From: Kiritimatiella glycovorans
GTDB lineage: Bacteria; Verrucomicrobiota; Kiritimatiellia; Kiritimatiellales; Kiritimatiellaceae
NCBI RefSeq assembly: GCF_001017655.1
Contig: NZ_CP010904.1
Location: 2,460,001 to 2,492,000, forward strand
Length of the DNA stretch: 32,000 nucleotides
Reading direction: 5' to 3'
In this document: one piece after another, positions 1-11,494 of the stretch
How the letters are laid out: the number at the start of each line of letters is the position of its first letter
How positions within the stretch are numbered: position 1 is the first letter of the stretch
The notes under the pieces: model-generated
What the model saw: only the letters and a program-made list of their open reading frames with translations
What the model was told of the DNA's origin: nothing
Databases searched by the model: none
Program-made: the position numbers and the translations under genes

Positions 1-913
1 ACAGGCCCAGGCGGCACTGCGCGAGATCCTTTCCCGGGGCGTCGAGCAGGGAGGTCAGCGCGACATACAGCGAGGCCGCGTAGCAGTTTCCGGTGACGCG
101 GGCGTACTCGCGCGTGCCTTCCAGCCACTCCTCGATCCGCTTCCCGTCCGCCTCCGCATGCAGCGCGCGCGCGAGCCGGACCTGTGCCTTTTCGGCCATG
201 CGGCTGAACGGCAGGTGGTAGCAGAACCGCTCGAAGTCCTCCAGCCCGCGGCCGCTCTGACCGGCGTAGTCCCGCCAGCAGTGCAGCATCGTGTCGATAT
301 AGACGCGCGTGGAGTACTTGCCGTCGACCAGCGCCTCGCGGCGGTAATTCGGCCGCCAGAAATCCATCACGTCCTCGGCATGATATCCCGCTTCGGGGTC
401 CAGGGCGAGAACCGCGGGGTCGGCCGCGACCGTAAAGGCGACGGCCCCGCACCCCTGGGTGGCTTCGCCGGGGTTTTCCAGCTCGTAGCGCGCGACATCG
501 GAAGCGATCACGAGTGCCTTGCGGCCGGGGCTCCCCCGCACGTGGGCTGCGGCGAGCTGGAGCGCCGCGGTCGCGCTGTAGCAGGCCTGTTTCACTTCCA
601 GGACGCGGCAGCGGGAGGGAAGATCCAGCAGGCCGTGGATGAACAGGCCGCCCGCCTTCGACTGGTCCACACCGCTCTCCGTGGCGAACAGGAGCAGGTC
701 GATGTCGTCCAGTTTCCCGTCGCGCCGCAGCGGGTGGGCCGCGCTGGCACCGAGCGTCACGGCGTCCTCATCCGGCGGCGCCACGCTCATGCGTTCCTGC
801 CCGAGGCCCTGAAGGTACTTTTTCGGGTCGACCGAACGCGCCTCCGCCAGTTTCTCGAGATCGAAGGCGTACTGCGCGGTGTAGAAACTGATGCTGTCGA
901 TGCCGATATTCAT
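1..913 (-). CDS. mvaS: Hydroxymethylglutaryl-CoA synthase (mevalonate pathway), 5' part only; the C-terminus lies beyond the window start
   Basis: Manual reverse translation from the ATG at 913..911 gives MNIGIDSISFYTAQYAFDLEKLAEARSVDPKKYLQGLGQERMSVAPPDEDAVTLGASAA...LLLFATESGVDQSKAGGLFIHGLL...EVKQACYSATAALQLAA...EATQGCGAVAF. This matches the bacterial MvaS N-terminus and the active-site Cys context (KQACYS). It is absent from the ORF track because it runs off the edge. The ATG overlaps the fni stop (ATGA at 910-913). Confidence 0.85.
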   Translation of the reverse strand, partial: MNIGIDSISFYTAQYAFDLEKLAEARSVDPKKYLQGLGQERMSVAPPDEDAVTLGASAAHPLRRDGKLDDIDLLLFATESGVDQSKAGGLFIHGLLDLPSRCRVLEVKQACYSATAALQLAAAHVRGSPGRKALVIASDVARYELENPGEATQGCGAVAFTVAADPAVLALDPEAGYHAEDVMDFWRPNYRREALVDGKYSTRVYIDTMLHCWRDYAGQSGRGLEDFERFCYHLPFSRMAEKAQVRLARALHAEADGKRIEEWLEGTREYARVTGNCYAASLYVALTSLLDAPGKDLAQCRLGL

Positions 914-1983
914 GCCGGATGTATGCCTCCGCGGGGACCGGCTTCATATTCACCGTCTCCGACAATCCACTGTTCCTGTCCTATCAAATATTCCGGGCGG
1001 CGGCAGCCGAGCAGGAAGAGGGCCAGACGGAACTCCTCGCGGTAGCGTCGGATGACCGCGCAGACCGCGTCCTCCGACTCCATCGCGGGCGCCAGCAGCG
1101 GGCGCGCCGCGCTGCCCAGCGAAGCGCCGAGAATCATCGCCCGGGCGATATCGACACCGGACCGGATGCCGCCGGAACCGATCAGCGTCGCGCCTTCCGA
1201 GCGAAGCGGAGAGAGGCGGCGCAGCGCCTGCGGCGCGGGTACGCCCCAGTCGGCGAAGGCCGCGGCCCGCGCGCGGCGCTCGGCATCGTCGCCGCGGCGA
1301 CTCTCCACATAGCTCCAGGAGGTGCCCCCGGCCCCGGCCGCATCGAAGTAGCGGACGCCTGCGGGGATGAGCGCACGCAGGTCGTCGGGGTGCAGACCGG
1401 CCCCCACCTCCTTGACCAGTACGGGCCGGTCGAGCGCCTCGGCGACCGCCCCGATCCGGGAGGCCAGTCCGCCGAAGGTGGGGGTGCCTTCGCGCTGCAC
1501 TGCTTCCTGAAGCGGATTGAGGTGCAGGTAGAGGCCGTCGGCCGCGAGCACGTCCACGGCTGCGCGGCATTCCTCGATCCCCATCCCCTGCCTGAGCTGC
1601 ACGGCGCCGAGGTTGGCGATCAGGGGCACCTCCGGGGCCAGCGGCCGCAGATCGAATGCCGCGCGCGCCTGCGGGTCCGAGAACATGACGCGCTGGGAGC
1701 CGACGGCCATGGCGACCCGTTCCCTGCGCGCCGCTGCGGCGAGGTTCCGGTTGATGCGGCGGAGCTGCCCGTCCGCTCCGCCGGTCATGGAAGCCATCAT
1801 GAACGGGAACGAGAGGCGGTGTCCCAGGAACTCGCAGGACGGATCCACCTCGTCGAGGTCCAGTTCCGGCAGGGCGCGATGATCGAGGCGCAGGGCGGCG
1901 AACGCACCGGCACTGCGGTCCGCCGCGGCCTCTTCCGCCGCGATACGCACATGATCGGCTTTACGCTGACTCATCGGCTCCAT
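910..1983 (-). CDS. fni: Type 2 isopentenyl-diphosphate delta-isomerase (FMN-dependent IDI-2)
   Basis: ORF 910..2085. From MEPMSQRKADHVRIA onward it resembles IDI-2: FMMASMTGG, AMAVGSQR, LVKEVGAGL, GAGGTSW, GSGGIRSGVDIARAMILGAS. I chose the start at 1983 because GGGAAGGGAG lies about 11 nt upstream and it avoids overlapping the upstream gene. 1974 and 2085 are alternative starts. Confidence 0.85.
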   Translation of the reverse strand: MEPMSQRKADHVRIAAEEAAADRSAGAFAALRLDHRALPELDLDEVDPSCEFLGHRLSFPFMMASMTGGADGQLRRINRNLAAAARRERVAMAVGSQRVMFSDPQARAAFDLRPLAPEVPLIANLGAVQLRQGMGIEECRAAVDVLAADGLYLHLNPLQEAVQREGTPTFGGLASRIGAVAEALDRPVLVKEVGAGLHPDDLRALIPAGVRYFDAAGAGGTSWSYVESRRGDDAERRARAAAFADWGVPAPQALRRLSPLRSEGATLIGSGGIRSGVDIARAMILGASLGSAARPLLAPAMESEDAVCAVIRRYREEFRLALFLLGCRRPEYLIGQEQWIVGDGEYEAGPRGGIHPA

Positions 1984-2059: not shown

Positions 2060-2641
2060 TCACGGGCCTTCGCTGCGGGATTCACGGTCGAGATCGAGGG
2101 CGTATTCCACCTCTTCCGCGGTCAGAGGACTGGTGACGCCCTCAAACGACTCGAACAGTTCCACCGGTCGGGTCGCCGACGGCTCTGCGGTTCCGGAAGG
2201 GCGCGCGGCCGGCTCCGGCGGGGGGGTGCGGGTCATCGCCAGCCAGCCTGCGGCGGCCATGACGGCGAGGACCACGATGAGGACCGCCAGCAGGTTGAGG
2301 GTCCGCTCCGAGCGCCGCAGCCGGGCGGCCATGGCCTCCTCGCTGCGCCTGCGCTCGTCGAGCTGGCCGCGGATATGTTCGAGACATTCGAGCGCGGCCG
2401 GGATCCGGTCGAGGTTCTCCGCCACGCGGTCCTGGAACTCGCGCTGGCGCCGCAGGTGGGACTGCACCGACTCCACCAGCTCGGCCATCCGGCGGTCCGT
2501 CTCTCCGGAGGCCTCCCCCCCGCCCGCGGCGGGAAGTCCGCCGCGTTTCCGGGCGGAGTCCGGTTTGACCGACGTCCACCCGCGGCTGGTCCTGTGTCCG
2601 GCACCCGTGAGTTTCCGCCACCAGCGGGTCCAACGATTCAT
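2060..2641 (-). CDS. Hypothetical membrane-anchored protein: basic N-terminus, coiled-coil-like segment, one TM helix (LLAVLIVVLAVMAAAGWLAM), acidic C-terminal tail
   Basis: 193-aa ORF with a strong SD (GGGAGGTG 5 nt before the ATG at 2641). It fills the gap between the kinase gene and fni on the same strand. I recognise no family. Confidence 0.55.
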   Translation of the reverse strand: MNRWTRWWRKLTGAGHRTSRGWTSVKPDSARKRGGLPAAGGGEASGETDRRMAELVESVQSHLRRQREFQDRVAENLDRIPAALECLEHIRGQLDERRRSEEAMAARLRRSERTLNLLAVLIVVLAVMAAAGWLAMTRTPPPEPAARPSGTAEPSATRPVELFESFEGVTSPLTAEEVEYALDLDRESRSEGP

Positions 2642-2673: not shown

Positions 2674-4722
2674 TCAGCCGGTCTCCCGTGCGAGGGCGTC
2701 TTCCGGGGCGGTCTTCGGGTTCCCGTCTGATCCGGGGACGTCCCGCTCGACCGGAAGCGTGACCGACACCCGCGTTCCCTCCTGCCCGGAATCCACCTCG
2801 ATCTTACCGTTATGGTCGACGACGATTCTTTTCGCGATGGGCAGGCCGAGTCCCATACCGCGGGCCTTGGTCGTGCAGAAGGGGGAGAAGAGTTTGGCGC
2901 GGAGTTCCTCGGGAATGCCGGCGCCGTTGTCCTGCACCGTAACCAGGACATACTCGCCCGACTCGCCGGCGGACATCCGGCGTGCCGTCACGCCGATGCG
3001 CGCGTCCCGGCCCGACTCCACCGCCTCGACGGCATTGACGACCAGGTGGCGCAGACATTCGCTCATCGCGGAGGCGTCGCCGGTGAGCACGGGCAGATGG
3101 TCGTCCACATAGAGGTCCAGGCTCAGGCCTTCCGCGTTACGGTCCTGCATGGCGCGCCGCACGGCCGTCTGCACGACGGGCCCCGGGGCGAAGGGCTCGT
3201 ACTTCGGATTCGGGGGGCTGGCGAAATGGTTGATCTGATCGATGATCTGGTTGAGCCGGTCGACCTCCCGTTCGACGTTGAGGCTGAACTGATCGCGGAA
3301 TTCGGGGTCGTCGTACCGCTCCGGGAGAAGCTGGGCGAAGGTTTTGATCGCGACCAGCGGATTACGGATCTCGTGCGACATGCTGGCGGCGAGTTCGTTC
3401 CAGAAGGCGACGCGCTCGAGCTGCTCCTCTTTCTCCTCGAGCCGGCGCTCTTCGGTGAGGTCCTTGATCAGCGCCACGGCGCCGACGCAACGGCCGTCGT
3501 CGAGCAGCCGCCGGGTCTCCGCCGAGAAGAGGCGCTGCGTGGCCGGATCGCTCCACTCGACCGGGTGGTGGATCTCCTCGCCGTCGAGCGCGCGGCGGAG
3601 GATATCGGAGAGCCGGCTGCCGAAGATTTCGACCGGCATCCCGCACACGCTCCCGGCCTCGACGCGCAGCGCGGTCTGGGCCGCCCCGTTGCACCAGCGG
3701 ACTTCGCCGTCCTCGCCGATGGCGATCAGCCCGGCGGGGATCGACTCCAGCAGGGTTTCGCCCAGCGCCTCGCGCATGCGGGTGTCCTCGTGCTGGAGCG
3801 CGTTATCGACCGTCGCGCCGATATGGTCCGTACAGGTGGACAGGTATTCCAGGTCCTCGGCGCTGAACGGCCGCCCGGTGATCCGCGCGCCGAGGAAGAG
3901 CCACCCTTTGACTCTCCTCCGGCCCGAGAGCGGCATGATCAGCTCCGCGCCCATTTCGTGGAGGGCCTCGGCGACCATTTCGCGATCCATCGGGTCTTCG
4001 ATCGTCTCGAGCGAAGAGCGCAGGACGGCCCTCCCGTTCCAGTCCAGCCACTGCACAAACCGGTCGCGGTCGGAGAAGTGGAGGCTTCGCAGATGATCGG
4101 AACACCGGTGGCCGCCGCGCAGGCAGTAGGTACCTCCGTCGCGCAGGGCGCAGAAGATGCCGGCGCGCGTGACCTTAAGGGCGGACGCCAGCCCGTCCAT
4201 CAGACTGTCGTAGAGAGCCGCAGGGTTCTCGAAATCGCCCATCGCCCGCGAGAGGTGGCGCAGGATATCCGAGGAGGGCGCGGTCTCCTCCGGGCCGGGC
4301 CCGGCGGCCGGGGTCTCGCGGCGGCGGATTTCTTCGCGCAATACGCGATTTTCGCGCTGCAGCTCCAGTCGGCGGTGCGCATCCTCCACGATCCGCCGGA
4401 ATTCGTAGGGCTCGAACTCGAGCGGCGAAACGGCGAAGACCTCGAGTTCGCGCGCCTCGCGCACGGGCGCCGAGCGGGCCTCGCCGAGCGTGATGACCGG
4501 CGCATCGGGATGCCGTTCGCGGATTTCGCGAAGCACATCGAGCGCCTCGGGGGCGCGGAGGTCGAGCACCACGACGCGGTGTGGGGTCCGGTAGAGGGCG
4601 CGGCTCAGTTCGGCGGCGCTGCCCGCGGCGCGGACTTCCGCCAGCTCGTGGAGGCTTCCGGTCACCCGCACGCGGACCTCGTCCTGCGCGCAGTAGAGAA
4701 AACAGGAGGGGCGCTGTTTCAT
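2674..4722 (-). CDS. Cytoplasmic sensor histidine kinase: N-terminal receiver-like domain, GAF-like region, PAS-like region, HisKA, HATPase_c
   Basis: 682 aa. H-box SMSHEIRNPLVAIKTFAQLL. N/G boxes NAVEA...DNGAGIPEEL...FSPFCTTKARGMGLGLPIAKRIV. The N-terminus (VVVLDLRAPEALDVLREIRERHPDAPVITLG) has a receiver-like fold signature. No TM segments are evident. The ATG overlaps the upstream kinase stop (ATGA 4719-4722). Confidence 0.85.
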   Translation of the reverse strand: MKQRPSCFLYCAQDEVRVRVTGSLHELAEVRAAGSAAELSRALYRTPHRVVVLDLRAPEALDVLREIRERHPDAPVITLGEARSAPVREARELEVFAVSPLEFEPYEFRRIVEDAHRRLELQRENRVLREEIRRRETPAAGPGPEETAPSSDILRHLSRAMGDFENPAALYDSLMDGLASALKVTRAGIFCALRDGGTYCLRGGHRCSDHLRSLHFSDRDRFVQWLDWNGRAVLRSSLETIEDPMDREMVAEALHEMGAELIMPLSGRRRVKGWLFLGARITGRPFSAEDLEYLSTCTDHIGATVDNALQHEDTRMREALGETLLESIPAGLIAIGEDGEVRWCNGAAQTALRVEAGSVCGMPVEIFGSRLSDILRRALDGEEIHHPVEWSDPATQRLFSAETRRLLDDGRCVGAVALIKDLTEERRLEEKEEQLERVAFWNELAASMSHEIRNPLVAIKTFAQLLPERYDDPEFRDQFSLNVEREVDRLNQIIDQINHFASPPNPKYEPFAPGPVVQTAVRRAMQDRNAEGLSLDLYVDDHLPVLTGDASAMSECLRHLVVNAVEAVESGRDARIGVTARRMSAGESGEYVLVTVQDNGAGIPEELRAKLFSPFCTTKARGMGLGLPIAKRIVVDHNGKIEVDSGQEGTRVSVTLPVERDVPGSDGNPKTAPEDALARETG

Positions 4723-7199
4723 GAATCCGGATCCCCCTCGTTTACAGTTTCGAACGAGATAAAGAAGCTGGTTCCCTCGCCCTGCGCGCTGCGGACCTCG
4801 ACCTCGCCTTGATGGTCCTTGATGATCCCGTGGGCCACCGGAAGACCGAGTCCGGTCCCCTCATCTTTTCCGGTGAAGAAGGGGTCAAAGATACGCGGGA
4901 CATCCTCCCGGGGTATACCGCACCCCGTGTCCGCGATTTCCACGCGGACCGCTGGCCGTCCGTCCCGCCGCTCGTTGCGCGTCTCCATGCTCAATACCCC
5001 ACCTTTTTCCATAGCCTCGATCGCATTCAAGCAGAAATTGAGGAAGGCTTGAATGAGAAGCGAGGCGTCGCCGCGGATCAGATCGTTGGAAGCCTCCCAC
5101 CGGGTGCGCGATTCGATGCCTTTCTGCTTCATGTTTTCCGCGACGAGGCTCTGCACGCGCTGCAGGATCTCCTGCAGGTGCACCGGGACCAGATGGGGGG
5201 GCTGGGGGCGGGCGAAGCGCAGCAGCTGATTGACCGTATTGTCGATCCGGCCCACCTCGTGCCCTACGAGTTCCGAGAAATTGCGGCGGAAGTCCGGGTC
5301 CTCGTAGCGTTCCGGCAGGAGCTGGGTGAAGGTCTTGATGGTCACCAGCGGGTTCTTGATTTCGTGGGCCATGCCCGCGGCGAGCGTACCTGCGCTGGCC
5401 AGGCGGTCCGACCGGCGCACCTGCTGCTGGAGGCGGTGCACGGCGCTCACATCGTGAAAGACCAGCAGCCCGCCCAGCCGGGCTTCGCCGCGCCCGGTAA
5501 TCACGGCGGCCCCGAGCCGCAGGTGGTATTCTTCGTCCGCCGTCGAGCGTATGAGGGTATCGCAGTCGCGGCGCCCCTTCCCGGTGGCCAGCGTCTCCTC
5601 CATAAACTCGTTGAGGGGTTCGGGCAGTTCGGAGCAGGGCGAGCCGAGCAGGGCGCTCGAGGGGACCCCGGTGATCCGTTCCGCCTCGCGGTTGAAGATA
5701 CTCACGCGGCCCCGCGAATCGGTGGCCGCCACGCCGGTGACCAGGTGTTCCACCAGGAAGTCGTTGTAGATCTTGCTGTTCTGGACCTCCGTGTAGAGCT
5801 GGGCGTTTTCCACCGCCACCGCGAACTGGTTGCAGAGGCTCTGCAGGGCATTCTGTTCGGGGGAGCCGTAGATGCGTTCCGATCGTCGCGGCCCCAGCAG
5901 CAGCATCCCGCGCAGGTACCCCTTGGAGTAGATGCCGATGCCGATCGCCATCCCGAGGGCCTGGAGCTCCGCGCAGGCCGCGGCGCGCTGTTCCGTGGTG
6001 CGCAGCCGTCCCTCGATCTCCGGAACGAGCGGTCTGCGCTGCTGGGAGAGCACGCGCACGACCGGCGAATCCTCGGCCAGCTCGAGCGGGTTCTCCTCCT
6101 TCAGTTCGGGCGGGGGGCGGTAGAACCCGTCCGGCTGGCGGAAGAGGAACATGCCGCGCTCCGCATCCATGGTCCTCAGCACCAGCCCTGACGCCTGGTT
6201 CAGCAGCGAGGGCAGTGTGGACACCGTCCGCAGCAGGTCCGAGGCCCGCCGCATCAGTTCCGCCGTGTCGATATTTCCGGCGTCGTCGAAGAGCTTACCG
6301 GTCATCCGGTGAACACGGTCCTTGAGGGGCGGAGCGAAAATGGCCGTGACCACCGCCGCCACGCAACAGGCCACGATATCCGGCATCGCGAACCAGCCGG
6401 TAAAGAGGAGGTCGGCGACCCACCACGAGAAGAGAAAGATCACCGCGAGATAGGCGGAGAGCACGATATAGCCCAAGGCCCGCTGCAGGAGGTGTGACAC
6501 GTCCATGATCCGGTGGGTGGCGATCCCGTAGGCGATGATTACATTGAGCAGAATTACGCCGTAGGGTGCCAGCGGGGCGGTTTTCGAACTCCCACTGATC
6601 GCGGGTATGATAATTCCCAGCGTGATCCCGGTACTGATCCCCACGATGGCGCCCAGGCATACGAACTTGAGTTCCACCTGCCGGATCGACTTCGTGCTGC
6701 GGATATCCCGGATGAAGTGCCGGATCAGCACCGCCACCAGTGCGATATACATCAGGGAAAACAGGTGGAACAGCGGCCCGTAACGCGGTTCGGCAAACAC
6801 CACGTTCAATTCGGTGTCGCGTGTCAGCACTACCTCGCGGATGAAAAGGTCGGTTCCGCAGAGCAGGGCCGCCAGGAGGTTGACGAGGATGAAAATTCCG
6901 GAGCGGCGCACGCTATGCCAGAAGCCTTCCGATTCGTCGAGCAGCGAGAGTCGCAGCAGGAAAAAGGCCGTAGGCACGAGAATGCAGACCCGGGAGGCCT
7001 GACGGATCCAGAATTCGGCATCCTCCGCCTCCTGCGCATTCAGCACCATCCACTGACAAAACAGCCAGAGCGCGATGATCACCGAAAAAAGCAGGTAGCG
7101 CCGATTCGCCCTGCGCCCGCTGTTGGTGAAAAACACCAGCAACCCGAGGGCAAAAACGGTGATCGTCGCACTTAGAATGGAGAAGTGAAAAAAGTTCAT
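4719..7199 (-). CDS. Membrane sensor histidine kinase: ~290-aa polytopic (about 7 TM) N-terminal domain, GAF-like, PAS-like, HisKA, HATPase_c
   Basis: 826 aa. Multiple hydrophobic helices lie in the first ~290 residues. H-box GMAHEIKNPLVTIKTFTQLL. ATP-lid DTGCGIPREDVPRIFDPFFTGKDEGTGLGLPVAHGII. The ATG overlaps the ketosynthase stop (ATGA 7196-7199). Confidence 0.85.
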   Translation of the reverse strand: MNFFHFSILSATITVFALGLLVFFTNSGRRANRRYLLFSVIIALWLFCQWMVLNAQEAEDAEFWIRQASRVCILVPTAFFLLRLSLLDESEGFWHSVRRSGIFILVNLLAALLCGTDLFIREVVLTRDTELNVVFAEPRYGPLFHLFSLMYIALVAVLIRHFIRDIRSTKSIRQVELKFVCLGAIVGISTGITLGIIIPAISGSSKTAPLAPYGVILLNVIIAYGIATHRIMDVSHLLQRALGYIVLSAYLAVIFLFSWWVADLLFTGWFAMPDIVACCVAAVVTAIFAPPLKDRVHRMTGKLFDDAGNIDTAELMRRASDLLRTVSTLPSLLNQASGLVLRTMDAERGMFLFRQPDGFYRPPPELKEENPLELAEDSPVVRVLSQQRRPLVPEIEGRLRTTEQRAAACAELQALGMAIGIGIYSKGYLRGMLLLGPRRSERIYGSPEQNALQSLCNQFAVAVENAQLYTEVQNSKIYNDFLVEHLVTGVAATDSRGRVSIFNREAERITGVPSSALLGSPCSELPEPLNEFMEETLATGKGRRDCDTLIRSTADEEYHLRLGAAVITGRGEARLGGLLVFHDVSAVHRLQQQVRRSDRLASAGTLAAGMAHEIKNPLVTIKTFTQLLPERYEDPDFRRNFSELVGHEVGRIDNTVNQLLRFARPQPPHLVPVHLQEILQRVQSLVAENMKQKGIESRTRWEASNDLIRGDASLLIQAFLNFCLNAIEAMEKGGVLSMETRNERRDGRPAVRVEIADTGCGIPREDVPRIFDPFFTGKDEGTGLGLPVAHGIIKDHQGEVEVRSAQGEGTSFFISFETVNEGDPDS

Positions 7200-8488
7200 G
7201 GTCGGGTCACGCGGCTTACCACCAGGGAGCTGTTAATACCGCCCATGCCGTGCACGTTGAGCATGGCACAATCCGCGCGGTAGCGACGCGGTCGCAGGGG
7301 CACGTAATCCAGATCGCAGGCGGGATCGGGCTCCCTGTAATTCGCCGTCGGGGGAACAAGGTCGTCCCGAAACACCCCCGCGCAGGCGGCGAGCTCCAGC
7401 GGGCCCGCGGCCGCGAGAGGGTTGCCCGTGACCCCTTTAATCGAACTCACCGGTATCCGGTAAGCCCATGGACCGTATACCGCCTTGATGGCCTCCGTTT
7501 CGCGCTGATCCAGCTCCGGGTCGCTGGGGCCGTGCGCGCAGATATAGTGCACGTCCCGTGGCGCGGTCCCGGCGGCGTCGAGGGCCTCGCGCATCGCGTC
7601 CTCGAACCCCGACCCCACGGCCTCCGCCGAGCGATCCAGCCGGCTTCCCCATCCCAGGAGTTCCAGGCGCGGCTCCGCGCCCCGCGCCATGGCGTGGACG
7701 AGCGACTCGACCACGAAAAACGCTCCTCCCTCGGCCATCACACCACCCTCCCGCCGCCGGTCGAACGGGCAGCTTCGCGTGGCCGCATTCACGACCCCCC
7801 CGGGCACCATGCGGGTGCGGCCGAAACACGCAACCGTCAACGGGTTGATCGGGGCGTCGACCCCCCCGGCCAGGACCAGGTCGCTTCGCCCCTCCCGGAC
7901 GACCGACGCCGCCTCGGCGAGCGCGTCCATCCCGGCTGCGCACGCCGTCGAAACCGTCATGGCGCGCGTGTTCAGCCCCATGTGCTCGGAGATGGCAGTA
8001 GCCACGGCATGCGGCTGACAAGCTCCGACGATATGCGGACTGACCTTGTTCGGGCCGCGGCGCGACATCTGTTCCTTACCCTGCTCAATCACCTCAATGG
8101 CACTGGTGCTTACGCCCACATAGATCGGAAGAAGCGAGCCGCTCTGGAGATCGGCCGATTCCCCGACCCGTGCGTCCTTGATCGCCATGCAGGACGCCGC
8201 AAGGGCAAACTGCGTGTGACGCCCCATGCGCTTCGGCTTAACAGGAAAAGGAATATGAATCAGGGGATCAAATCCGTCTACCTCGCCGGCAATCCCCACA
8301 AAATGTTCGGATGCATCAAACAATGAAATAGGCCCGATGCCGCTCCGTCCTTCGAGGAGGGCGGACCAGAAGTCCTCGACGCCGATACCGTTCGGCGCAA
8401 GAACCCCTATTCCCGTGATGACGACTCGTCGCGCGTCGACCAAGCCCTTCTCCCCTAAAGGCAGCGAAGCCTCCGGACCGTAAACCAC
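7196..8488 (-). CDS. Beta-ketoacyl synthase of the KAS I/II (FabB/FabF) fold, atypical (apparent Cys-His-Asn instead of Cys-His-His)
   Basis: 430 aa, GTG start at 8488. RRVVITGIGVLAPNGIGVEDFW, active-site Cys context VSTACAAG, first His YICAHGPSDP, C-terminal NVHGMGGINSSLV. The position aligned to the second catalytic His of FabF (KSMTGHLLGAAG) reads IKGVTGNPLAAAG. Confidence 0.8.
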   Translation of the reverse strand: MVYGPEASLPLGEKGLVDARRVVITGIGVLAPNGIGVEDFWSALLEGRSGIGPISLFDASEHFVGIAGEVDGFDPLIHIPFPVKPKRMGRHTQFALAASCMAIKDARVGESADLQSGSLLPIYVGVSTSAIEVIEQGKEQMSRRGPNKVSPHIVGACQPHAVATAISEHMGLNTRAMTVSTACAAGMDALAEAASVVREGRSDLVLAGGVDAPINPLTVACFGRTRMVPGGVVNAATRSCPFDRRREGGVMAEGGAFFVVESLVHAMARGAEPRLELLGWGSRLDRSAEAVGSGFEDAMREALDAAGTAPRDVHYICAHGPSDPELDQRETEAIKAVYGPWAYRIPVSSIKGVTGNPLAAAGPLELAACAGVFRDDLVPPTANYREPDPACDLDYVPLRPRRYRADCAMLNVHGMGGINSSLVVSRVTRP

Positions 8489-8600
8489 CGCCCCCTGGCG
8501 GAAACATTTTACGGCTTGTCCGTATCATCCCGCCTGTGCTATCAAAACCCCCGTCGGAACGGTCAAGCCCGAAGCCTAAGCAACCCGGGAGAGGTGTACA

Positions 8601-9881
8601 ATGTTTTATTTGCACGCGTCCAGATGGTCGACGACCCCCCGAATGGTCCGTGTTCTGCTGTGTGTCGCGGCGCTTATCGCGGCGGGGTCCGCTTTCGGGG
8701 ACGGCTACCGCAATCCTCCTCCGACGGCGGAGGGGATCGGCAAGGGGGGCGCGAACCGCGCTTTTGTCGACGACGCCTCGGCGATCTTCTACAACCCGGC
8801 GAACCTGATGTTCCTGGAGCGCCCCGAAGTGGTGGGCGGCGTCACGATAGCCCGCGCTCACGGCGACTTCGACCCCGACAACCTCGCGGGATCCCGCGAA
8901 TCCGAGGACCCGTGGCAGGCGATGCCCAACGTGTTCGCCGCCTGGCCGATGCCGGAGAGCGGCCTCGTCTTCGGCCTCGGCATCTCCACGCCCTACGGGC
9001 AGTCGGTGGAGTGGGACCGGGATGCGTTTTACGCTCCCATGACCCCGTCACTCTACCGCGCGGAGATGAAAATGGTCGACTTCGCGCCCACGGCCGCGTG
9101 GAAATTGAATGACAACCTCTTCTTCGGTGCGGGCGTCAACATCATGTACTCCACCTTCGACCTCGACCAGAACGTGCCGTGGAGCGATCTGCCCTCTCCG
9201 CCGTTTACCGGTCCCGACAGCACCGGCGAAATTGAAAGCGACGGCATGGGACTGGGCGGGAATGCCGGCATGACCTGGCTGATCACGGAACGCCAGCGCA
9301 TGGCCTTTACGTACCGCTCCCGCTTCCAGATCGAATACGACGGCGACCTTCATGTCGGCAATTTCCAGCCCGGCGGGTACTTCGCGGCCGCCTCCAGCGA
9401 TTTTTCCACCGACATCCAGTTCCCCGATACTTTCGCGCTGGGCTATGGCGTCCGCGTGACCGACCGGATGAACCTGGAATGCAACGTGGAGTGGCTGAAC
9501 TGGAGCAGTAACGACGAGGCCGTGTTCGACCTCGGCAACAACGGTTCCCTGCCGGTCAACTACGACTGGGAAGATACGTTCACCTATGCACTCGGCGCCG
9601 ACTGGTCGCTCGACGACCACTGGACCGCCCGGTTCGGGTACGCCTACATAGAGAGTCCCGTCCCGGACCACACCTACAGTCCTTTCTTCCTTGAGGAGGA
9701 TCGTCACGTCCTGAGCACCGGCATCGGGTACCGTGCGGGCGGGCACCGGATCGATCTGGCCTACGCCTACAGCCTCTACGACGAACGCGACGTGAACACC
9801 AACACGGAAAACCCCCTCTACGAAGGTGAGTACGAGTACGACTCCGATCTGCTCGGCCTGACCTACGCCTACACCTTCTGA
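8601..9881 (+). CDS. Outer-membrane beta-barrel of the FadL/OmpP1/TodX long-chain fatty acid / hydrophobic compound transporter family
   Basis: 426 aa. Signal peptide MVRVLLCVAALIAAGSAFG. Family-typical N-terminal segment GKGGANRAFVDDASAIFYNPANL. Alternating aromatic beta-strand pattern with terminal YAYTF (C-terminal Phe). SD GGGAGAGG lies 7 nt before the ATG at 8601; 8643 is an alternative start. Confidence 0.75.
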   Translation: MFYLHASRWSTTPRMVRVLLCVAALIAAGSAFGDGYRNPPPTAEGIGKGGANRAFVDDASAIFYNPANLMFLERPEVVGGVTIARAHGDFDPDNLAGSRESEDPWQAMPNVFAAWPMPESGLVFGLGISTPYGQSVEWDRDAFYAPMTPSLYRAEMKMVDFAPTAAWKLNDNLFFGAGVNIMYSTFDLDQNVPWSDLPSPPFTGPDSTGEIESDGMGLGGNAGMTWLITERQRMAFTYRSRFQIEYDGDLHVGNFQPGGYFAAASSDFSTDIQFPDTFALGYGVRVTDRMNLECNVEWLNWSSNDEAVFDLGNNGSLPVNYDWEDTFTYALGADWSLDDHWTARFGYAYIESPVPDHTYSPFFLEEDRHVLSTGIGYRAGGHRIDLAYAYSLYDERDVNTNTENPLYEGEYEYDSDLLGLTYAYTF

Positions 9882-9902: not shown

Positions 9903-11099
9903 ATGGCCACCGGGGAACCACAGGGCAAAGTGCTCGTGATCGACGACGAGCAGGGACCGCGGGAAAGCCTCAAGATGGTTCTCAAGGGGCCTTACGAGGT
10001 CGTCACCGCCGATCACGTGGATGAGGGCCTGCGCAAATTCGAAGAGGAAAACCCCGACCTGGTGATCCTCGACATCCGCATGCCCGGCCGCAACGGCATC
10101 GAGGCGCTCAAAGAGATCCGCGAACGGGACTCGGAAGTGGCCGTCATCATGCTCACCGGCTACGGGGCGCTCGAGACCGCGCAGCAGGCGATCCGGCTCG
10201 GCGCCAACGACTACCTGGAAAAACCCTTCGACATCAACAACATCAGAAAAATTGTCGACACCAATGTGGCGCATACGCGGCTCAACCGCCGCCGGAACCG
10301 TGCCGAACACGAGCTGGAGTCGCTGACCGAGCGACTGCAGTCCGAGATTGGCGTGAAGGACAACATGGCCTCGCTCGGCGTGGCCTCCGCCGAACTGGTG
10401 CACGATATCCGCAACCCGCTCACGGTCGTCCTCGGCTACGTCCAGCTCATGATGCACCAGCTCGGCGAACTGAGCACCGGCGATTCAGAACGCGACTCGC
10501 AGGATCTCTCCGAGTATCTCGGTGCGATCGAAAAAAATGCGCGCTACTGCGCCAAGCTGGCCGAGGACTGGCATATGCTGGGGCGCGGCGAGCACGATTC
10601 GGTCGAGCCGGTGGCGATCCCCGGGCTGCTGCGCGATGTGGTCGAGAACGCGCAGGCGGTCGATCCCGAGGCCGCGATCCGGCTCGAGATCGAGTCCCCC
10701 GAAGACGACCTCACCTGCCGTGCCGCCCATATCCAGCTTCAGCGGGCCCTGCAGAACATCGTCAACAACAGCGTCCAGTCGCTCCAGGGGCGCGACGTCA
10801 GGAACGTCGACATCCACTGCAGCCGCAACGGCGACGGACAGATCCGGATCGTGATCGCCGACACCGGCTGCGGAATCGCCCGCGAAACGCTCGAGTGGAT
10901 TTTCGAGCCGTTCAAGACCACCAAGAAGGGCGTACAGAAGGGAACCGGACTCGGCATGTTCATCACCAAAAAGGTCATCGACCGCCACGGGGGGCGGATC
11001 GAATTCGAGAGCGAAGAGGGCCGCGGAACCACGGTTACCGTGCTGCTTCCCGAGCGGCCGCCGGATCACATGGACGAGGGAAAAAACGCAGACGCGTAA
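9903..11099 (+). CDS. Hybrid response-regulator/histidine kinase (N-terminal receiver, C-terminal HisKA-like + HATPase_c)
   Basis: 398 aa. Receiver: KVLVIDDEQG...DLVILDIRMPGRNGIEALKEIR...VIMLTGYG...DYLEKPF. H-box ELVHDIRNPLTVVLGYVQL. ATP-binding part NNSVQS...DTGCGIARETLEWIFEPFKTTK...GTGLGMFITKKVI. Confidence 0.85.
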   Translation: MATGEPQGKVLVIDDEQGPRESLKMVLKGPYEVVTADHVDEGLRKFEEENPDLVILDIRMPGRNGIEALKEIRERDSEVAVIMLTGYGALETAQQAIRLGANDYLEKPFDINNIRKIVDTNVAHTRLNRRRNRAEHELESLTERLQSEIGVKDNMASLGVASAELVHDIRNPLTVVLGYVQLMMHQLGELSTGDSERDSQDLSEYLGAIEKNARYCAKLAEDWHMLGRGEHDSVEPVAIPGLLRDVVENAQAVDPEAAIRLEIESPEDDLTCRAAHIQLQRALQNIVNNSVQSLQGRDVRNVDIHCSRNGDGQIRIVIADTGCGIARETLEWIFEPFKTTKKGVQKGTGLGMFITKKVIDRHGGRIEFESEEGRGTTVTVLLPERPPDHMDEGKNADA

Positions 11100-11110
11100 A
11101 GGGGGCATAC

Positions 11111-11494
11111 ATGGGGGACGAAGCGCGGAACATACTCATTATTGACGACGATCCCGACATCCGGCGGCTGCTGGAACAGTTTCTGGCGAGGGAAGGTTAT
11201 AACATCCTGACCGCCTCCACCGGCGCGGAGGCCGAACAGATCTATCTGGAAAACCCTCCCGACCTGGTCATCACCGATATCATCATGCCGGATCGCGAGG
11301 GGATCGAGACGATCCGCGAGATGCGCCGCATGTACCCGGAGATGACGATCGTCGCCATCTCGGGCGGGGGACGCATCGATTCGCAGGACTACCTGGTGCT
11401 CGCCCGAAAACTGGGCGCCGACCGGACCTTCGGAAAACCGTTCGACCTCGCTGAAATGCTCAACTATATCAGAGAAGCGCTCGGCGATGCGTGA
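11111..11494 (+). CDS. Single-domain CheY-like response regulator (no output domain)
   Basis: 127 aa starting at the internal ATG 11111, with SD AAGGGGG just upstream. NILIIDDDPDIRR...DLVITDIIMPDREGIETIREMR...IVAISGGG...FGKPF. Confidence 0.85.
   Translation: MGDEARNILIIDDDPDIRRLLEQFLAREGYNILTASTGAEAEQIYLENPPDLVITDIIMPDREGIETIREMRRMYPEMTIVAISGGGRIDSQDYLVLARKLGADRTFGKPFDLAEMLNYIREALGDA

Follow-up and report, generated by a model that had tools for sequence, protein, structure and literature searches.

The 32,000-nucleotide stretch of the Kiritimatiella glycovorans chromosome analysed here (NZ_CP010904.1, positions 2,460,001 to 2,492,000, referred to as the window) encodes a ketosynthase, KS, that combines the fold of the 3-oxoacyl-acyl carrier protein (ACP) synthases I and II (KAS I/II) with a Cys-His-Asn catalytic set. 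KAS I/II enzymes are defined by the triad Cys-His-His (PMC9006962). KS is followed by two histidine kinase genes, HK1 and HK2, and often stands opposite a gene for a FadL-type outer-membrane channel. This cassette is a conserved enzyme-plus-sensor-kinase unit of the Kiritimatiellia, Verrucomicrobiota and Lentisphaerota. KS is very probably neither a fatty-acid elongation enzyme nor a member of the mevalonate pathway, whose genes fni and mvaS lie downstream of it in this genome. The function favoured here, with confidence about evenly divided, is that KS would make an acyl-derived, hydrophobic signal that the neighbouring kinases sense.

Fold and active site

KS contains the N- and C-terminal ketoacyl-synt domains (PF00109, PF02801). 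Its AlphaFold2 model (pLDDT 92.3) superposes on B. subtilis FabF (4LS8) with a TM-score of 0.90, and structural alignments with FabF/KAS II enzymes give approximately 34-39% identity over the two-domain thiolase fold. The FabB/FabF architecture proposed in the initial annotation is thereby confirmed, and the motifs quoted there (VSTACAAG, CAHGPS, SSIK and VTGNPL) are all present in the translation. The annotation had placed Asn at the position of FabF His340 by eye, and this register holds. HMMER alignments to solved FabFs set 'ssikgvtgNplaaag' of KS opposite 'sstksmtgHllgaag'. A MAFFT alignment of 117 KAS I/II sequences, including E. coli K-12 FabF from NC_000913, pairs Asn356 of KS with His340, His319 with His303, Lys351 with Lys335 and Cys183 with Cys163. 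The combination of a KAS I/II fold with Cys-His-Asn in place of Cys-His-His is therefore confirmed.

The substitution is shared by the family. Asn is found at the position of Asn356 in 117 of the 121 closest database homologues (48-59% identical), the other four carrying Ser, and the Cys is invariant among them. In a common alignment 23 of 27 gene-order-verified orthologues have Asn, against His in 65 of 65 ordinary FabFs. KS is under purifying selection, with a dN/dS of 0.03-0.12 for close pairs. Given the family-wide Asn and the purifying selection, Asn356 is neither a chance substitution nor a sequencing error.

The 27 orthologous loci comprise the window, three database homologues on long contigs, 20 loci from genomes of the phylum and three from a wide genome scan; the sampled genomes are related to one another and counts across them are not independent. 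In each of the 27 proteins one of positions 319 and 356 is Asn and the other His or Tyr (His/Asn in 18, Tyr/Asn in five and Asn/His in four). Tyr319 always occurs with Arg413, and Asn319 always with Arg351 and His356. Cys183, Asp327 and Glu330 are invariant. In two distant kinase-linked ketosynthases (Lentisphaerota and Thermodesulfobacteriota) position 356 is Ile or Gln and position 413 once more His.

Features of FabF that persist in KS are the nucleophilic Cys and first His, Lys335, Asp311, Glu314, Asn396, Asn404 and the GxGG turn. The differences (E. coli FabF numbering) include His340 and Phe398, the latter corresponding to position 413 of KS, and extend to the gate. In elongating ketosynthases the gate is formed by loop 1, the Phe400/GFGG turn, and loop 2, Asp265-Pro273 (Mindrebo et al., PMC7138838). 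In the KS family Phe400 is replaced by Met, Leu or Ile, so that the turn reads GMGG in KS itself, and four residues of loop 2 (Tyr267-Thr270) are deleted in all 27 members with Asp265 retained. The malonyl/pantetheine threonines of the HGTxT motif are also changed, Thr305 to Pro and Thr307 to Asp or His. Further replacements are Phe229 by Gly, Ile108 by Thr, Ser or Cys, and GSGIGG by GVSTSA. Our reading of this pattern is that the active site of KS is probably functional and of KAS III type, with an extra or relocated basic residue, and is set in a KAS II scaffold that has lost the ACP-gated elongation apparatus. The Cys-His-Asn set is common to KS and to the KAS III and chalcone synthase enzymes, which makes decarboxylative Claisen chemistry plausible.

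The ketosynthase-kinase-channel cassette

In the typical arrangement KS is followed in the same direction by HK1, HK2 and a sigma54-dependent response regulator, while fadL and then a REC-HisKA-HATPase hybrid kinase run divergently from it. KS and HK1 are adjacent in all 27 loci and HK2 comes next wherever the contig extends. The hybrid kinase is present in 26 of 27, the remaining contig (L006) beginning at KS with its upstream side unseen. fadL occurs in 20 of the 27 loci and the sigma54 response regulator in 15. A search of 111 genomes of the class detected the non-kinase N-terminal half of HK1 in 48, and it lies beside KS wherever coordinates were compared.

A FastTree phylogeny places the 27 synteny-checked ketosynthases in one clade with SH-like support of 97-98. 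The sister of this clade is a Lentisphaerota KS that is likewise followed by HK1, HK2 and a sigma54 response regulator. The FabF of K. glycovorans itself falls among ordinary FabFs, and the KS-alpha/chain-length factor (CLF) pairs of actinomycetes fall outside the KS clade. The KS-HK1 pair also occurs in outgroups from the Lentisphaerota, Nitrospirota and Thermodesulfobacteriota. These came from the wide scan, made with the family alignment, two of whose three patterns are common to ordinary FabFs. The scan was dominated by ordinary FabFs for this reason; it yielded only three new clade members, the outgroups and four distant pairs of a ketosynthase with a seven-transmembrane (7TM) kinase. In the four pairs (L069, Lentisphaerota; L072, Nitrospiraceae; L124, Thermodesulfobacteriota; L139, Verrucomicrobiae) a distant FabF-like ketosynthase precedes the kinase gene.

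A class I S-adenosylmethionine (SAM) methyltransferase follows the hybrid kinase in seven loci, and in two others an O-methyltransferase of the Methyltransf_2 family lies between fadL and KS. The cassette methyltransferases hint at a methylated small-molecule product.

The cassette has a predicted transcriptional output. A sigma54 promoter motif, TGGCA[CT]-N7-[TC]GCT, faces the operon of fadL and the hybrid kinase in 15 loci, 14 of which encode the sigma54 response regulator; at the 15th (L044) the contig stops inside HK1 and the regulator side is unseen. One locus (L050) has the regulator and lacks the motif. No motif was found in the loci shown to be without the regulator, including the intergenic region 8444..8600 of the window. 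The window carries the variant of its taxonomic order in this respect: it has no sigma54 response regulator and a CheY-like receiver (11111-11494) instead, a gene similar to which sits after HK2 in relatives belonging to that order. The four sigma54 activators of this genome lie elsewhere, and no remnant of one was found downstream of HK2 in the window, even at E = 10. The sigma54-driven output through fadL is a prediction for loci that bear the regulator and does not extend to this genome.

A putative signal synthase and its alternatives

Synthesis of a signal by KS would begin with acylation of Cys183 by an acyl thioester. With the help of His319 and Asn356, and possibly of His413, the acyl group would undergo Claisen condensation with an extender, of the malonyl type or another. 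What results would be a small hydrophobic compound derived from a beta-keto-acyl chain, methylated in some lineages, which may cross the outer membrane through FadL and be sensed by the 7TM/GAF part of HK1. HK1, HK2 and the hybrid kinase would then relay phosphate to the sigma54 regulator, leading to induction of fadL. In K. glycovorans the phosphate would go to the CheY-like receiver and to a regulator encoded elsewhere.

The initial annotation had offered a lipid signal read by the kinases as one of two hypotheses. It agrees with the gene order, with the sigma54 promoter before fadL, with the nine methyltransferase loci and with the co-divergence of KS and the HK1 sensor, while the signal itself is still putative. 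The co-divergence was seen in pairwise distances. With kinase cores controlled for, KS distances track those of the 7TM and middle domains of HK1 and of FadL (partial rho 0.39-0.56), and track the sensor part of HK2 far more weakly (0.09-0.27). Some related loci are mosaic, KS and the 7TM domain having diverged much further than the HK1 kinase core. Between L004 and L064 the identities are 60% for KS, 36% for the 7TM domain and 92% for the HK1 kinase core; between L048 and L051 they are 55%, 32% and 77%, respectively. A predicted complex of KS residues 16-430 and the cytoplasmic sensor region of HK1 (residues 236-600) scored 0.01, which speaks neither for nor against binding.

Several points weigh against a signal synthase. 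The catalytic activity of KS, its product and the ligand of the kinases are predictions. In the loci examined the cassette encodes no ACP, acyltransferase, thioesterase or ligase that would define the substrates or the release step. KS, the HK1 N-terminus and FadL are encoded next to one another, so block replacement by itself could give the co-divergence, which is suggestive only. The placement of His413 in the active site is a prediction from its alignment with Phe398, a position of the extender pocket in FabF and KasA structures. The FadL channel is not obligatory, since a Tyr319/Arg413 variant of the Verrucomicrobiae lacks both fadL and the sigma54 regulator. The copy of the cassette in this genome is itself without the sigma54 response regulator, the sigma54 promoter and a methyltransferase.

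The Tyr319/Arg413 variant is found at five loci of Verrucomicrobiae and Chthoniobacterales (L004, L046, L054, L064 and L068). Behind the hybrid kinase these have an 800-residue protein with a weak match to the lantibiotic-dehydratase N-terminal domain and a ParA/CbiA-like ATPase.

The alternative that survives best is that KS makes nothing and serves as an acyl-thioester reporter or co-sensor, its Cys acylation or the occupancy of its pocket by acyl- or malonyl-ACP or coenzyme A (CoA) thioesters being read by HK1 and HK2. Through the cassette, sigma54-dependent expression of FadL would then respond to the status of lipid precursors or to a fatty compound taken up from outside. We regard this as unlikely but as a serious contender. 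The overlap of the KS stop with the HK1 start, present in several loci, suggests that the two are made in equal amounts, the Cys alone is invariant in a catalytic set that otherwise varies by lineage (His/Asn, Tyr/Asn, Asn/His), no carrier protein or release enzyme is encoded, and the gating and pantetheine-binding elements of FabF are lost. On the other side, retention of the Asn with its His or Tyr partner, of Lys or Arg at 351 and of Asp327 and Glu330 goes beyond what a binding protein needs, the methyltransferases of nine loci suggest a product, and the rapid joint divergence of KS, the membrane sensor and FadL fits signal-receptor pairs better than it fits sensors for universal metabolites.

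It is improbable, to a clearly greater degree, that KS converts a hydrophobic substrate imported by FadL into the true inducer or the first metabolite of a substrate-inducible uptake circuit. Hydrocarbon channels of the FadL family under two-component or sigma54 control provide the precedent, TodX with TodST and TbuX with TbuT, and the predicted sigma54 promoter of the fadL operon would suit such a circuit, as would the frequent location of the cassette near variable loci such as exopolysaccharide genes. However, the cassette has no conserved association with genes for catabolism, beta-oxidation or a CoA ligase, a condensing enzyme would be an odd first step of catabolism, and the Verrucomicrobiae variant does without fadL.

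If KS does make a signal, a broader role can be envisaged. It is possible, though doubtful, that the cassette represents an as yet undescribed class of cell-cell signalling in bacteria of the Planctomycetes-Verrucomicrobia-Chlamydiae (PVC) group (Kiritimatiellia, Verrucomicrobiota and Lentisphaerota). KS, with its relocated catalytic set, would produce a lineage-specific autoinducer derived from lipid, a dedicated sigma54-induced FadL would let it out of and into the cell, a 7TM kinase would be the receptor, and these parts would co-diversify as in pherotype loci.

Mevalonate neighbours and the missing thiolase

The other hypothesis of the initial annotation was that KS supplies the acetoacetyl thioester for 3-hydroxy-3-methylglutaryl-CoA (HMG-CoA) synthase, the product of mvaS. 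Its observations on this genome stand. KS is co-directional with fni and mvaS, and ATGA overlaps (7196-7199 and 4719-4722) couple it to the two kinase genes in between. No thiolase is visible in the window, and the absence extends to the whole complete genome, a single contig of 2,949,723 bp: Pfam Thiolase_N, TIGR01930 and an archaeal-type model gave only weak hits to FabH, to a second FabH-like gene and to the two ketosynthases. The mevalonate cluster beyond the window holds no recognisable thiolase either. Of the other pathway genes, those for two GHMP kinases and a diphosphomevalonate decarboxylase (MDD) follow mvaS beyond the window edge, and HMG-CoA reductase (HMGR) lies at 1.15 Mb (L013, genome 1154493-1155473).

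The link itself is not supported, because the adjacency is unique and the presence and absence of the two genes disagree in both directions. Neither mvaS nor fni lies beside KS in any of the 26 other loci. Eight relatives have an HMGR-fni-mvaS-kinase-kinase(-decarboxylase) operon that lacks KS and is located elsewhere (L175-L182). The order in these relatives indicates that in K. glycovorans a break occurred between HMGR and fni and that the rest of the operon landed behind the kinase operon; the reductase gene is now 1.3 Mb from the fni-mvaS block (L008, genome 2445001-2461000). The position of KS next to fni and mvaS is thus a lineage-specific rearrangement. Across 301 sampled genomes of the phylum KS was found in 36 and mvaS in 57: 30 have both, six KS only and 27 mvaS only. 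The overlap of 30 is due to shared ancestry within the Kiritimatiellia.

It is accordingly very improbable that KS joins acetyl and malonyl thioesters into acetoacetyl-CoA or acetoacetyl-ACP in the manner of NphT7, the acetoacetyl-CoA synthase of the Streptomyces mevalonate cluster. In its favour are the lack of any bacterial- or archaeal-type thiolase detectable in the complete genome, the shared direction of KS and fni-mvaS with no terminator-like site predicted between KS and mvaS, the NphT7-type triad, the 30 of 36 KS-positive genomes with mvaS (confounded by shared ancestry), and GVSTSA in place of GSGIGG which, together with the replacement of Ile108, might shorten the acyl pocket. Against it stand the separate HMGR-fni-mvaS operons of the relatives, with their two mevalonate kinase-type (MK) genes and MDD, the 1 Mb that separates KS from mvaS in a closed relative genome, and the genomes with only one of the two genes. 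Three mevalonate-positive genomes of 95-98% completeness (G011, G053 and G098), in which no thiolase was found, carry one KAS I/II gene each and lack HK1. The partners that KS invariably has are kinases and not enzymes of the mevalonate pathway.

A second, divergent FabH-like gene of K. glycovorans (genome 2178378-2179451, minus strand, L010), which scores 176 bits, below the cut-off, and adjoins a sulfotransferase gene, was considered as an NphT7 analogue and rejected: among 300 genomes only three others have an orthologue, and all three lack mvaS. In most Kiritimatiellia with the mevalonate pathway no thiolase is recognisable, and their mevalonate operons contain no gene for the formation of acetoacetyl-CoA. 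Matches to TIGR01930 numbered 0/9 in family f2, 0/5 in f7, 0/3 in f8, 0/6 in f9, 0/9 in f10 and 0/3 in f13. Directly downstream of the mevalonate genes of K. glycovorans are genes for a B12-binding radical SAM enzyme (L008:7563-9119, minus strand) and an NMO/FabK-like flavoenzyme (L008:9193-10629, minus strand).

Relation to housekeeping FabF and other condensing enzymes

A canonical fabF is located in the plsX-fabH-fabD...fabF cluster at 255-260 kb of the same genome. KS is therefore a paralogue and not the only fabF, which disposes of the housekeeping role that the initial annotation had considered. In the TIGR03150 model the canonical FabF scores 637 bits and KS 337 bits (1e-100), with a cut-off of 493.75. 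Among the attributes of a TIGR03150 FabF, KS has the fold; the equivalog score, the Cys-His-His triad, the gating loops and the location in a fab cluster are absent, its neighbours being sensor kinases.

It is barely credible that KS is a further FabF, redundant or used under particular conditions, that elongates membrane fatty acids: fabF is its best family match, the fold is that of FabF and two ACP-docking basic residues are retained (Arg87, equivalent to Lys69; Lys/Arg at positions 68 and 128), but its score lies below the cut-off, His340 is missing, Phe400 is Met or Leu, loop 2 has lost half its length, other residues stand in place of the HGTxT threonines, and the family forms a separate clade whose genes lie with kinases in every case and in no case in a fab cluster.

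KS shares the Cys-His-Asn set with KAS III, the chalcone synthases and NphT7 in composition only. FabH and KAS III models, including ACP_syn_III, gave no match to KS, whose best matches are all KAS I/II. In contrast to KAS III and NphT7, it lies on the KAS I/II branch, carries its Asn on a different structural element and has no conserved link with the mevalonate pathway. Thiolase models matched KS over a 50-residue stretch around the Cys only (27-36 bits) and gave no full-length match. KS is also not a CLF, since its Cys is invariant, no second ketosynthase adjoins it and it falls outside the clades of KS-alpha and CLF.

KAS I/II-fold proteins with replaced triad residues are known. The KS0 domains of trans-acyltransferase polyketide synthases lack the His of HGTGT and form part of a megasynthase, and CLFs lack the Cys. 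The family variants with Tyr or Asn at the position of His303 resemble KS0. Unlike these proteins, KS keeps the Cys and His303, stands alone and is separate from the KS-alpha/CLF pairs in the tree.

Comparison with known signalling loci

Loci that combine a signal synthase with sensor kinases include phcBSRQ of Ralstonia, CqsA/CqsS-LuxO of Vibrio and LqsA/LqsS/LqsT of Legionella. Their signals are derived from fatty acids. The phc locus has a REC-kinase hybrid (PhcR), a CheY-like protein (PhcQ) and a methylated signal, and the Cqs pathway ends in the sigma54 activator LuxO. The KS cassette resembles them in encoding a dedicated enzyme of lipid chemistry together with membrane sensor kinases. 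It differs in that KS has the FabF fold, whereas PhcB is a methyltransferase and CqsA and LqsA are pyridoxal phosphate-dependent acyltransferases, and in having two kinases and a FadL predicted to be inducible. Sequence kinship between the systems is confined to generic kinase domains, and the signal of the cassette is putative.

PpyS is a KAS III-like protein. Photorhabdus uses this ketosynthase-like enzyme to make a cell-cell signal in its PpyS/PluR photopyrone system (PMC4235431). Its receptor is a LuxR solo, whereas KS is KAS II-like and its putative receptors are histidine kinases.

A FadL homologue affects signalling by long-chain acyl-homoserine lactones (AHLs) in Sinorhizobium (PMC9938287). 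As in that case and in TodX and TbuX, the cassette links a channel to the perception or uptake of hydrophobic compounds, here under predicted sigma54 control. It differs in that its FadL is hard-wired to a ketosynthase and three kinases.

A literature search found no paper on the KS-kinase cassette or on a Cys-His-Asn KAS II enzyme, and no characterised cell-cell or lipid-sensing system of PVC bacteria. New here are the comparison with E. coli FabF residue by residue, the deletion in loop 2 and the covariation of positions 319, 356 and 413. The rejection of the mevalonate link after testing and the general lack of a thiolase in mevalonate-positive Kiritimatiellia are new as well.

Gene layout of the window

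The initial annotation had reported the KS open reading frame (ORF) at 7196-8488 without a strand. A single ORF has these coordinates and it is on the minus strand (Table 1). The maximal ORF starts with GTG at 8488 and encodes 430 residues. The database form of 415 residues matches a start at TTG 8443, upstream of which lies a well-spaced, purine-rich ribosome-binding stretch, GGGGAGAAGGG. The counterpart of this stretch at GTG 8488 is only 2 nt away from the codon, and TTG 8443 is the likely start. The KS stop overlaps the HK1 start, and the HK1 stop the HK2 start, at the two ATGA sites given above.

The N-terminus of HK2 (window 4387-4722, minus strand) shows a weak likeness to receiver domains (Pfam E 0.007; tblastn with the REC domain of a sigma54 regulator 1e-4), and HK2 may on this account accept phosphate itself. 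HK2 is followed after a 32-nt gap by a 193-residue ORF, and this after a further 76 nt by fni (ATG 1983). The 193-residue ORF was found only in this genome, at the junction of the kinase cassette and the mevalonate block.

Table 1. Features of the window and of related loci. Positions refer to the window unless a locus is named.
Feature	Position	Strand	Remarks
KS (P0001), FabF-fold ketosynthase paralogue	7196..8488	-	ORF list, translation, Pfam, TIGR03150, AlphaFold2 model
Cys183 codon (TGC), VSTACAAG	7940..7942	-	E. coli FabF Cys163; invariant in family
His319 codon, CAHGPS	7532..7534	-	FabF His303; family His 18, Tyr 5, Asn 4 (n=27)
Lys351 codon, SSIK	7436..7438	-	FabF Lys335; family Lys 23, Arg 4 (n=27)
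Asn356 codon (AAC), VTGNPL	7421..7423	-	FabF His340; next residue Pro357 invariant; family Asn 23, His 4 (n=27)
His413 codon	7250..7252	-	FabF Phe398 (NSFGFGG to NVHGMGG); family His 22, Arg 5 (n=27)
HK1, sensor kinase	4719..7199	-	7TM (HisKA_7TM), GAF-like, PAS, HisKA, HATPase
HK2, soluble kinase	2674..4722	-	REC-like, GAF, PAS, HisKA, HATPase
193-residue ORF	2060..2641	-	One predicted membrane helix; no family match
fni, type 2 isopentenyl diphosphate isomerase	910..1983	-	Likely start ATG 1983; first gene of the relocated mevalonate block, outside the cassette
mvaS, HMG-CoA synthase	1..913	-	Runs past the left edge of the window
Divergent intergenic region, KS to fadL	8444..8600
fadL, FadL/TodX-family outer-membrane channel for hydrophobic compounds	8601..9881	+	Divergent from KS; Pfam Toluene_X 2e-63
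REC-HisKA-HATPase hybrid (receiver and kinase core)	9903..11099	+	Pfam; conserved partner of fadL
Stand-alone CheY-like receiver	11111..11494	+	127 residues from ATG 11111
Predicted sigma54 promoter upstream of fadL	L003, L044, L045, L047-L049, L051-L053, L055-L058, L060
Class I SAM methyltransferases	L003:6233-7162, L045:5901-6797, L048:3473-4267, L050:13009-13830, L055:3220-4005, L060:12298-13110, L063:5895-6779
Methyltransf_2 O-methyltransferases between fadL and KS	L052:7913-9013, L053:10880-11962

Implications

The genes of this family are currently named 3-oxoacyl-ACP synthase II, a name that misleads metabolic reconstruction. The source of acetoacetyl-CoA in the Kiritimatiellia that use the mevalonate pathway is a testable question, to which KS is not the general answer. 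The cassette, present in approximately 40% of the sampled Kiritimatiellia, offers a testable candidate system with a putative synthase, receptor and channel, to which most species add a predicted target promoter. If the reading of the active site is true, the KAS I/II scaffold would be able to work with Cys-His-Asn and a relocated His or Arg, and without the gating loops thought to be general among stand-alone KAS I/II enzymes, and these ketosynthases would form a new functional subfamily.

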